From assembly GCA_026396515.1 (NCBI GenBank), contig JAPLWQ010000002.1, positions 9,075-73,074 on the forward strand: a stretch of DNA of 64,000 nt, written 5' to 3'. Source of the stretch: Candidatus Magasanikiibacteriota bacterium. Lineage in GTDB: Bacteria > Patescibacteriota > Patescibacteriia > Magasanikbacterales > GWA2-37-8. Shown one piece after another: positions 42,586-43,375 of the stretch. The notes under the pieces are model-generated. The model was not told the origin of the DNA and searched no databases. It saw only the letters and a list, made by a program, of their open reading frames with translations. The translations under genes and the position numbers were made by a program. Positions within the stretch are counted from its first letter, which is position 1; the number at the start of each line of letters is the position of its first letter.

Positions 42586-42665
42586 GATGCAACCAAATCC
42601 GACAGAGTGCCTAACGGCCTCTTCCGGACAAGTACTCGGCATAAACGCTGAGGGAGGATACTTCA

Positions 42666-43229
42666 ATGAAAATCAACGAGAGAACGAAGGATTTCTTCAC
42701 GGCCATGATCTTCATCATGGGTGCGGCGTTCATCGCTTCCTTCATCCCCGCCTGCGACAACGGCGACGACGACTGCTCCGCAGACGGCGGCGCCTGCGAC
42801 GGCGACACGGATGGTGACGCCGGTGGTGACACCGATACCGACAGCGACTCGGATACGGACACCGACTCGGACACGGACACGGACACCGAGACGGACGACC
42901 CGACGGCCTGTGACTGTTTCAAGACCGAAGACCCCGATAACGGCTGCTACAACATCGAGGGCGATTGGTATCGTGACGAAATTCACGATAGTTCTCACCT
43001 TCTGACCTTCACTCTGACCATTACGGGCTCCGAGTGCTTGGTGGGGTGGACCGGCCTCGCGGCTTTCACTTACCCTCAGACTGTAAAAAAGCTGCCGATT
43101 GAATGGTACGACGAAGAATACGATGAAAACTACCTGATCGACCGCTATGATCACGGCGAGGGCGACCCGCGAATCCAGATGAAAGCCTGGGGTTCACTCG
43201 CAAACGGCGAGGCTTTCTACGCCCGATAA
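42666..43229 (+). CDS. Asp-rich putative lipoprotein (high-GC gene)
   Basis: 187 aa. Signal peptide ending in a lipobox-like ASFIPAC. Acidic tract DGDTDGDAGGDTDTDSDSDTDTDSDTDTDTETDD encoded by a GACACG/GACTCG hexanucleotide repeat. C-terminal globular domain. GC about 58% against about 40-45% nearby. Confidence 0.55.
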   Translation: MKINERTKDFFTAMIFIMGAAFIASFIPACDNGDDDCSADGGACDGDTDGDAGGDTDTDSDSDTDTDSDTDTDTETDDPTACDCFKTEDPDNGCYNIEGDWYRDEIHDSSHLLTFTLTITGSECLVGWTGLAAFTYPQTVKKLPIEWYDEEYDENYLIDRYDHGEGDPRIQMKAWGSLANGEAFYAR

Positions 43230-43375
43230 TTTCATCACCGACCTGTTTACAGCTGATTCATATCCTGCCTTCTTCCCCACCTCGGCAACTTCTGCCGAGA
43301 TTTCCTGAAAAATTTTTTTGATTGCTTCGCCCACCCTGACAGGACTCGCAATGACAGTGAAAAGATTTTTGAGGA

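Follow-up and report, generated by a model that had tools for sequence, protein, structure and literature searches.

A 64,000-nt stretch of the Candidatus Magasanikiibacteriota contig JAPLWQ010000002.1 (hereafter the window, meaning the whole stretch at its full length) carries one small gene, open reading frame (ORF) 42666-43229 on the + strand (187 aa, ATG start), whose base composition stands apart from everything around it. The best explanation of the evidence as a whole, which we hold with slightly better than even confidence, is that it is a native, vertically inherited gene of Magasanikbacteria-type bacteria of the candidate phyla radiation (CPR; Patescibacteria), and that it encodes a small surface lipoprotein. 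We read the gene as native because relatives carry it in the same slot and with the same codon bias. As proposed here, the protein would be membrane-anchored through a Sec signal peptide and lipobox Cys, a stalk of ~50 residues, polyanionic, disordered and built of (Asp-Thr/Ser)n, would hold the next domain off the membrane, and that domain would be a ~105-aa acidic, disulfide-stabilised, 8-stranded calycin-like barrel. The gene itself would be a stand-alone, head-on transcription unit, with its own promoter, structured leader, Shine-Dalgarno sequence and terminator, in the gap between a type IV secretion system (T4SS)-like operon and the gene of a giant surface protein. The window is chromosomal DNA that includes KsgA, Sua5, RF-1, FtsW and GyrB. 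The gene and its two flanks comprise the following features.

33290-41555, - strand: T4SS-like operon, with VirB4 (DUF87/TraG P-loop), TraC-like, PrgI, two unknowns and a 989-aa VirB6-like protein, assigned by Pfam and NCBIfam
42653-42658, + strand: Shine-Dalgarno sequence GGGAGG, read directly from the sequence, 7 nt 5' of the ATG
42666-42755, + strand: signal peptide and lipobox (aa 1-30, ending FIPAC), from the translation, with Cys30 invariant in 8 family members
42756-42908, + strand: polyanionic linker or stalk (aa 31-81), 21 Asp in 51 residues, with a small Cys-x6-Cys loop
42828-42896, + strand: imperfect hexanucleotide/18-nt tandem repeat (GAY-ACN/TCN)n, Tandem Repeats Finder periods 6, 12 and 18, 73-84% matches
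42909-43229, + strand: C-terminal domain (aa 82-187) and stop codon, with 4 conserved Cys and a predicted 8-stranded calycin-like beta-barrel
43381-43413, both strands: bidirectional intrinsic terminator, common to the lipoprotein gene and the convergent giant-protein gene, a 15-bp stem between an A-run and a T-run
43461-51812, - strand: convergent giant surface-protein gene, 2783 aa, CBM_4_9 domain, with an ortholog beside the lipoprotein gene in loci L002, L003, L004, L033 and L034

Relative to the other ORFs of the window (48 in all, on which the ORF statistics rest), the lipoprotein coding sequence, at GC 0.573, has the highest GC content at third codon positions (GC3, 0.739). The remaining 47 average 0.41 (sd 0.08, maximum 0.586), which places the gene at z = 4.0, or at z = 5.8 when it is compared with the 28 ORFs from those parts of the window with 42-48% GC. 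The 600-nt bin 42601-43200 is likewise the richest of the 64 kb (GC 0.570; runner-up 0.528), and the short gene of about 58% GC in a lower-GC context that a preliminary description had reported is therefore confirmed. Values at first and second codon positions (GC1 0.54, GC2 0.44) fall inside the range of the neighbours. Along the gene, GC3 is 0.83 in the signal peptide, 0.86 in the linker and 0.66 in the C-terminal domain. The only other "ORF" of similar GC, 29533-29841, is not read as a protein gene because it overlaps an opposite-strand tRNA-Ser (29770-29861) and its GC1-GC3 values are flat (0.59/0.58/0.63). Around the lipoprotein gene, leader and antisense ORFs at 42401-42817 (+), 42611-42922 (-), 42663-43154 (-), 42207-42431 (-) and 43194-43427 (-) were rejected as genes, being non-conserved, broken by 1-nt indels in L003, or mere GC3 "shadow" frames; in relatives, moreover, the spacer downstream of the gene could not accommodate the 77-aa ORF.

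The excess resides chiefly in synonymous sites. Under window-average codon usage the same protein would be encoded at GC 0.474 and GC3 0.45, as opposed to the observed 0.576 and 0.74, and ~83% of the difference is synonymous codon choice, the other ~17% reflecting an amino-acid composition rich in Asp, Gly, Thr and Ala. GAC makes up 73% of Asp codons (24/33) versus 34% in the background, ACG 45% versus 19%, and GGC 65% versus 42%; C-ending codons are also used for Phe (TTC 9/9), Asn (AAC 6/6), Tyr (TAC 6/8) and Ile (ATC 8/11). The fraction of C at NNY codons (NNY-C) is 0.79, compared with 0.27 +/- 0.07 in the other ORFs (z = 7.3), so that the GAC-, ACG- and GGC-type usage previously noted as unlike that of the neighbours proves more extreme than described. 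At the four-fold degenerate sites of the C-terminal domain C alone is enriched (C 0.42, G 0.23), whereas a high-GC donor would be expected to raise G and C alike. Selected mRNA structure within the coding sequence was rejected as the cause of the GC content (fold z -0.87 versus -1.02 for a control coding sequence). The second-highest NNY-C in the window (0.43) belongs to ORF 3557-4357 (-), whose secreted, all-helical product carries a signal peptide and faintly matches a nematode fatty-acid/retinoid-binding family.

Orthologs of the lipoprotein are 30-55% identical and hold the corresponding position in at least six related genomes; the closest public genome (L002, CAWDHY01) is a Candidatus Magasanikbacteria metagenome-assembled genome (MAG) with a 628-kb contig. 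In all five loci for which both flanks were fetched (L002, L003, L004, L033 and L034), the gene occupies the same slot, standing alone on the + strand with the VirB6-like end of the T4SS operon on one side and the giant surface-protein gene, 3' end first, on the other, and every family member with fetched context lies in a CPR-type locus. The neighbours are 77-92% (VirB4), 42-74% (giant protein) and 60-64% (KsgA) identical; the lipoprotein reaches just 47-51%. The compositional contrast travels with the gene: in L002-L004 its GC3 is 0.67-0.74 versus 0.35-0.55 for the neighbours, and its NNY-C is 0.65-0.75 versus 0.24-0.37 for the pooled neighbours. NNY-C amounts to 0.54-0.75 in seven orthologous loci; in L033 and L034 both small lipoprotein genes of the slot score 0.43-0.57 versus 0.12-0.29 for their neighbours, and a paralog in this set with a different C-terminal domain is raised as well. 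One of these loci (L017/L004; CAYOXC010000003.1, GCA_964407865.1) is titled "uncultured Gammaproteobacteria bacterium", a label that is probably a binning or taxonomy error because its synteny is CPR-type and its orthologs are as in the Magasanikbacteria MAG.

Synonymous divergence (dS) of the neighbouring genes between genomes is 1.4-2.3, near saturation, meaning that synonymous sites have turned over. The lipoprotein gene has the highest nonsynonymous divergence (dN) of the locus (0.34-0.44) yet a lower dS (1.0-1.4), the combination that constrained codon choice would produce. Among the four closest orthologs, singleton synonymous changes number 9 from GC to AT and 8 from AT to GC, though GC sites are three times commoner, which suggests equilibrium rather than decay. 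Something must be actively maintaining the bias, since diverged orthologs and paralogs still show it. With respect to the hallmarks of genomic islands, the composition is atypical, but the gene is neither absent nor displaced in relatives and shows neither mobility genes nor donor-like GC1/GC2; no integrase, transposase, tRNA or direct-repeat boundary flanks it in the window, where the sole tRNA is 13 kb away.

The encoded protein begins MKINERTKDFFTAMIFIMGAAFIASFIPAC|D. A positively charged n-region, MKINERTKD (K, R, K), precedes an 18-residue hydrophobic stretch, and the signal peptide closes with the lipobox Cys (…FIPAC|DNG), a layout found in all family members. The Cys is invariant in the family alignment, where orthologs read VTAC, TVAC, LAAC, LVAC, LSGC or LMGC; the lipobox in the window, IPAC, has an atypical Pro at -2. 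Judging from the motif, this Cys would be lipidated. Neither Lgt nor LspA was seen among the Pfam-scanned ORFs of the window, about 20 ORFs, mostly at 7.5-25 kb, lying outside that scan.

The Asp-rich lipoprotein gene with a polyanionic D-T/D-S tract is real as first described, with its invariant lipobox Cys and its Asp-rich segment, but the hexamer repeat attributed to it is imperfect. The repeat encodes DTDTDSDSDTDTDSDTDTDT, which forms part of the 51-residue acidic tract with 21 Asp. Tandem Repeats Finder reports a period of 6 at 42828-42889 (10.3 copies, 75% match) and of 18 at 42834-42896 (3.5 copies, 84% match), and the units vary (GACACC, GATACC, GACAGC, GACTCG and others) across ~13 D-T/D-S dipeptides. 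With repeats matched at 73-84% and a 6-nt period that stays in frame, the tract does not resemble a phase-variable contingency locus. A check for repeat-length polymorphism found the gene identical in an independent run (L001) and proteins P0007 and P0005 each identical across samples. Tract length differs only between species, and both length and sequence vary freely among orthologs, in which the barrel motifs are conserved. A Cys-x(2-8)-Cys loop set amid Asp residues straight after the lipobox (DDDCSADGGACDGD; 42774-42797, aa 37-44) occurs in most family members and could be a disulfide or a metal site.

An acidic tract also follows the lipobox in many unrelated lipoproteins with different domains, which appear as weak matches in full-length searches and come in many cases from Myxococcota/Polyangia-type MAGs. 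In staphylococci, Ser-Asp repeats are disordered and are extended by charge repulsion, such that the binding domain projects through the wall (PMC9881980). Because the tract occurs on unrelated domains and resembles the Ser-Asp stalks, a role as spacer or stalk is better supported, by this analogy, than the cation binding suggested in the preliminary description. That the tract is instead the functional core of a dedicated divalent-cation (Ca2+/Mg2+) binding or buffering lipoprotein, an alternative that concerns function only, strikes us as doubtful. Its 21 Asp in 51 residues and the 43 acidic versus 8 basic residues of the mature protein would suit such a role, as would the conserved Cys-x(n)-Cys loop among Asp residues and a neighbouring gene (51819-52649) that matches bacterial TSP3 Ca-binding repeats. 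The lipoprotein itself, however, matches neither TSP3 nor any Ca-binding family (the TSP3_bac DxDxDGxxDxxD profile included, no Pfam family is hit at E <= 0.01), the tract varies freely in orthologs that keep their barrel motifs, and its attachment to many unrelated domains is the behaviour of a linker, as in the staphylococcal SD stalks (PMC9881980).

The C-terminal domain is acidic, ~105 aa long, and bears four invariant Cys and the motif D-P-T-A-C-D-C…G-C-Y-N-I-E-G-D-W-Y. It has no match in Pfam, NCBIfam or the PDB sequences. A profile search of 1.84 billion representative proteins returned ~12 real members, all small lipoproteins, and no homolog outside this small family, GC-rich lineages included; a metagenome search with a 4-sequence alignment of the domain added one further short locus (L024). 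Profile matches P0065, P0066, P0068 and P0072 were dismissed as spurious long repetitive proteins, P0065 being an ankyrin-repeat protein on inspection and the other three being judged from length and multiple short stretches only. The fold predicted from an 8-sequence alignment (AF2 pLDDT 85) is a calycin-like, 8-stranded antiparallel up-and-down beta-barrel. A reading of the barrel as a module of the neighbouring giant protein was rejected (hhalign probability 0.1%). In this model, the role of the barrel may be to bind a partner or a small hydrophobic ligand, either at the cell surface or where cell and host meet.

Upstream of the gene, the promoter and a long leader RNA contain these features.

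42153-42181, + strand: sigma-70-type promoter, TTGACA, 17 nt, TAATAT, with an extended -10 TG (promoter scan, 10/12 matches with the TG)
42187-42665, + strand: long 5' leader from the putative transcription start, ~480 nt here and ~330-350 nt in relatives
42188-42211, + strand: 5'-terminal transcript hairpin, UUUAG-U-GCC ... GGC-CUAAA, then a conserved UAAAAUA (predicted fold, conserved across nine leaders)
42296-42447, + strand: structured RNA module of ~150 nt, with a 21-bp helix (42296-42318/42425-42447) and an inner hairpin UCUGAC-CAAU-GUCAGA
42460-42471, + strand: GNRA-type tetraloop hairpin CCCC-GAAA-GGGG, 3' of the module, aligned in 6/6 module-bearing leaders
42497-42517 (unit B) and 42558-42580 (unit A), + strand: two palindromic hairpins, inverted repeats resembling repetitive extragenic palindromic (REP) elements

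The promoter is conserved in 9/9 leaders compared (the window, L025, L030, both promoters of L034, L002, L003, L004 and L028), and the strong GGGAGG Shine-Dalgarno sequence claimed for the gene is present 7 nt before the ATG. The leader is highly structured (42187-42680, minimum free energy -162 kcal/mol, z = -7.3 against 100 shuffles), and no intrinsic terminator lies between promoter and ATG on the + strand. In the 5' hairpin, the inner stem changes from GCC/GGC to CCCA/UGGG in L034 with pairing kept. An inverted repeat, TTGAC-N6-GTCAA (42153-42168), overlaps the -35 element, recurs at the same position in L002, L004, L025 and L028, is intact in 5/9 leaders, and could be an operator. A divergent - strand promoter, TTGACC-18-TATAAT at 42099-42070, faces a 70-aa coiled-coil ORF and the T4SS operon.

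The RNA module is more conserved than any protein gene of the locus, at 97% identity to L002 and 90% to L003, compared with ~50% for the protein, and 1-nt indels in L003 indicate that it is not coding. Compensatory double changes occur in 9/42 pairs, versus 2.4 +/- 1.3 in shuffles (0/500); 94% of cells are paired across six lineages, the closing helix has 7 compensatory pairs, and slid controls give 0-2, these figures being based on six sequences in an alignment fitted to the model. The module is found once per locus and only upstream of the lipoprotein gene in 6 lineages; together with the hairpin region it spans 42296-42478 in the window, 9769-9950 in L002, 9766-9941 in L003, 9779-9953 in L004, 7832-7944 in L034 and 1-84 in L027, and it is absent from the leaders of L025, L028, L030 and L033. 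The 4-bp stem of the adjoining tetraloop hairpin is 92% paired, two of its four pairs each being unpaired in one sequence, and its loop is GAAA, GCAA or CGUA. We rejected an origin as a miniature inverted-repeat transposable element, given the single copy per locus, the fixed position, the compensatory changes in the arms and a conservation above that of the protein genes.

Against Rfam, the whole window gives only the tRNA-Ser at the gathering threshold, and 41900-43500 gives chance-level matches at E <= 10. A scan of genome contigs for the leader-motif pattern yielded 17 matches, 15 of them chance matches in unrelated bacteria and 2 in contigs already known; viral contigs yielded 2 chance matches. 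A 21-bp helix is a canonical RNase III substrate, and the module could be a riboswitch-like sensor, an RNase III processing site or a stabiliser. With no Rfam family, it is a candidate for a new cis-regulatory or processing motif.

The palindromic elements said to precede the gene are real (42497-42517 and 42558-42580) but are not its own regulators: they are copies of a dispersed REP-like family with ten copies in the window, and for this reason we do not regard them as gene-specific operators. Other copies lie in an array at 31578-31880 (copies 31594-31864), at 23864 and at 37268, and also in L030 and L024; the same B+A pair is inserted in the L030 leader. The unit types alternate, as CCCTCCTCTT-nnn-AAGAGGAGGG and CCCTCTYTT-aca-AAGAGAGGG, and by coordinates two copies fall inside ORFs 23053-24195 and 36309-37505.

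As to what maintains the codon bias, the most likely cause is a combination of expression-linked codon selection and turnover of the repeat tract. Very high or efficient expression would bring with it selection at synonymous sites that holds C-ending codons throughout the gene, and propagation of the GAC-ACS repeat unit would reinforce the bias in the stalk. The gene may be highly expressed, to judge from its signals: the conserved TTGACA-17-TGnTAATAT promoter, the 5' hairpin, the leader fold at z = -7.3 and the GGGAGG Shine-Dalgarno sequence are all consistent with it. In E. coli, lpp and ompA are codon-biased, highly expressed envelope genes with stabilising 5' leaders, and the NNC preference, strong signals and reduced dS of the lipoprotein gene resemble such genes.

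Several points weigh against this account. The G-ending codons ACG, TCG, GAG, AAG and CTG are raised along with the C-ending ones, which is no classic signature of translational selection at a genome GC of ~42%. The bias peaks in the least conserved segments, signal peptide and stalk, which repeat turnover or gene conversion would explain no less well than would selection for accurate translation. The conserved neighbours VirB4 and TraC lack such codon bias, and slow growth and a reduced genome do not usually go with strong translational selection. NNY-C is 0.34-0.41 in the three remaining + strand genes of the window, versus ~0.26 on the - strand, from which it appears that strand asymmetry adds a little to the bias; as its sole cause, asymmetry was rejected, those values being only 0.34-0.41. 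There is almost no contrast in L027 and L024, whose GC background is higher. The singleton counts are small, and larger taxon sets give 5:0 and 4:0 in the GC-to-AT direction. With regard to the protein, the fold assignment of the C-terminal domain rests on a model from 8 sequences, and a Foldseek search of that model against PDB gave no significant match (E-values > 0.05, TM 0.3-0.45).

A serious rival for the cause of the bias, although we assign it a low probability, is gene conversion, GC-biased gene conversion (gBGC) included, at a surface-protein locus that evolves fast and recombines. Candidate processes of this non-adaptive, gene-specific kind, which would keep GC high, are GC-biased conversion or frequent recombination, homogenisation of the GAC-ACS unit by concerted evolution, and exchange between paralogous cassettes. 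GC3 is indeed highest (0.83-0.86) in the repeat tract and the shared signal-linker cassette, the 18-nt units are 84% identical, the two L034 paralogs have nearly identical promoters and leader starts, and P0008 has the signal peptide and linker of P0003 but a different C-terminal domain; moreover, the protein has the highest dN of the locus and its slot is an insertion hot spot. Yet the gene is single-copy in the window, with no paralog there to convert against, and the non-repetitive C-terminal domain is biased too (GC3 0.66 versus an expected 0.45), specifically towards C and not G+C. In bacteria, gBGC is weak and debated.

We consider it similarly improbable that an ancestor of the CPR clade long ago acquired the gene, or a promoter-signal-linker cassette, from a very GC-rich donor and that amelioration has been slow or incomplete. 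The architecture of lipobox and DTDS linker is common in GC-rich Myxococcota-type lipoproteins, the excess falls with distance (GC3 0.74 in the window, 0.67 in L004 and 0.57 in L033), the larger taxon sets show singletons from GC to AT only, and a dS of ~0.7-1.1 per lineage is too little to erase in full a donor GC3 that exceeded 0.9. Against this history stand a C-terminal domain without a homolog in any GC-rich lineage among the 1.84 billion representatives, native-like GC1 and GC2, four-fold sites enriched in C and not G, the 9 versus 8 singletons of the four closest orthologs despite a 3:1 excess of GC over AT sites, the sharing of the bias by a paralog with a different C-terminal domain, and a dS below that of the neighbours, which speaks of constraint and not of free decay.

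Recent acquisition from a high-GC donor, the interpretation of the preliminary description, in which a young island has yet to drift to host composition, is very improbable and is contradicted by the synteny: the gene is the strongest GC and GC3 outlier of the window, lies on the strand opposite to its neighbours with its own promoter and terminator, and has weak N-terminal matches to Myxococcota/Polyangia lipoproteins with a common lipobox and DTDS linker, but slot, orientation and anomaly are kept in at least five diverged relatives, the dS of the neighbours is 1.4-2.3, the excess lies at synonymous sites and leaves GC1 and GC2 native-like, there are no island boundaries at the gene, no donor was found, the C-terminal domain is confined to a small family of CPR-locus lipoproteins, and the Myxococcota matches are limited to a low-complexity linker on unrelated domains.

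Synteny of the T4SS-like operon extends to L003, L004 and L034, the terminator at 43381-43413 is ~86% conserved in L003, and the giant surface protein measures 2000-2800 aa across loci. ORF calling divides the giant gene in two (796 + 1998 aa) in L002 (10739-19115) but gives a single ORF of 2784 aa in L004; the split may be a frameshift, an assembly error or genuine. What lies between the T4SS operon and the giant gene varies: L034 (5743-10487) holds HepT/MNT and HicAB toxin-antitoxin pairs, L002 (4173-9542) two class-II aminoacyl-tRNA synthetase-like genes, a peptidase S66, a methyltransferase and a HIT protein, and L004 (7711-9464) a radical-SAM gene, while L033 (5452-5943) and L034 each have a second acidic-linker lipoprotein gene. 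Some paralogs (L034 9945-10487, P0008) have the promoter, leader start, signal peptide and linker in common and carry an unrelated Cys-rich C-terminal domain; the signal peptides of P0008 and P0003 are nearly identical. This sharing points to a cassette reused for expression and export, or else to conversion of the 5' part of the genes.

Farther out, a PMT_2/EpsG-like GT-C glycosyltransferase gene, 52757-54301 (-), lies between the TSP3-repeat gene and ksgA and is not there in L002 and L004; it is purely speculative that the enzyme might glycosylate surface proteins rich in Ser and Thr, the stalk among them. A polysaccharide-synthesis gene, 25136-26476 (Polysacc_synt), belongs to a large low-GC island (27-35% GC, with GC3 as low as 0.24) at ~7000-27000, most pronounced at 16200-23400. 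Gene orientation switches (61576/61643) at gyrB (61643-63907, +), and + strand GC skew is negative throughout the window. Switch and skew together suggest that the replication origin may lie to the right of the window, in which case the lipoprotein gene would be head-on and the - strand genes co-directional with replication.

CPR bacteria are unable to synthesise either fatty acids or the lipids of their membranes (PMC10633639, PMC7242380), and a T4SS-like system is essential for the epibiotic growth of a cultivated Saccharibacterium (PMC10633639). The lack of lipid synthesis provides a rationale for a surface protein that binds hydrophobic ligands, and capture of a hydrophobic ligand or partner at the host interface by the modelled barrel, whose gene neighbours both the T4SS-like operon and that of a giant adhesin-like protein, is a tentative possibility, clearly short of even odds. 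A bolder reading, to which we give little credence, is a CPR-specific "hyper-expression and export cassette", in which a strong promoter, a riboswitch-like or RNase III-processed leader and a codon-optimised signal-stalk would be reused by paralogs, and barrels would scavenge host lipids at the interface of T4SS and giant adhesin. If true, it would mean gene-specific codon selection and metabolite-responsive RNA control in ultra-small symbionts unable to make lipids. More generally, a sharp island of GC and codon usage is by itself no proof of recent transfer, a caution for composition-based island callers applied to CPR genomes. The gene also defines a small, previously unannotated family of CPR surface lipoproteins with an acidic stalk and a calycin-like barrel, positionally linked to a T4SS-like system, and the family is a candidate for surface ligand or lipid capture in bacteria unable to make membrane lipids (PMC7242380). 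Surface lipoproteins that combine a small barrel and a disordered stalk are of a familiar kind; what is notable is a codon-bias island kept across lineages and a conserved structured leader.

In comparison with known systems, the stalk is closest in kind to the R region of staphylococcal Sdr/Clf proteins, which likewise consists of Asp dipeptide repeats encoded by an imperfect 6/18-nt DNA repeat and lies between an anchor and a functional domain. The repeat here is a much shorter mixture of D-T and D-S (~13 dipeptides) and is N-terminal beside the lipobox Cys, whereas the Sdr/Clf tract is C-terminal beside LPXTG, a sortase motif that is lacking in the lipoprotein, which ends ...GEAFYAR; the resemblance is an analogy, not homology. 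The DTDS-linker lipoproteins of Myxococcota, Polyangia and other environmental bacteria share the series of signal peptide, lipobox Cys, (D-T/S/G/A)n linker and small globular domain, but their C-terminal domains are unrelated (FGE-sulfatase, PF07603/DUF1566, PEBP and cytochrome c), their genomes are GC-rich, so that such codons are normal there, and the similarity is limited to low-complexity sequence. Measured against the calycin barrels (lipocalin Blc, fatty-acid-binding proteins (FABPs), nitrobindin and avidins), the C-terminal domain has no lipocalin, FABP or avidin match in Pfam, NCBIfam or PDB sequences; it is shorter, at ~105 aa, than the roughly 150-180 aa of lipocalins, carries four conserved Cys, and shows of the lipocalin motifs just G-x-[WF]-[YW], in which the W is not invariant. 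In its expression signals, the gene is most like E. coli lpp and ompA, also small envelope-protein genes with their own strong promoter, a long, structured, hairpin-first 5' untranslated region and an NNC preference; it differs from them in belonging to a CPR host, where strong codon selection is not expected, and in a leader that holds a large conserved module.

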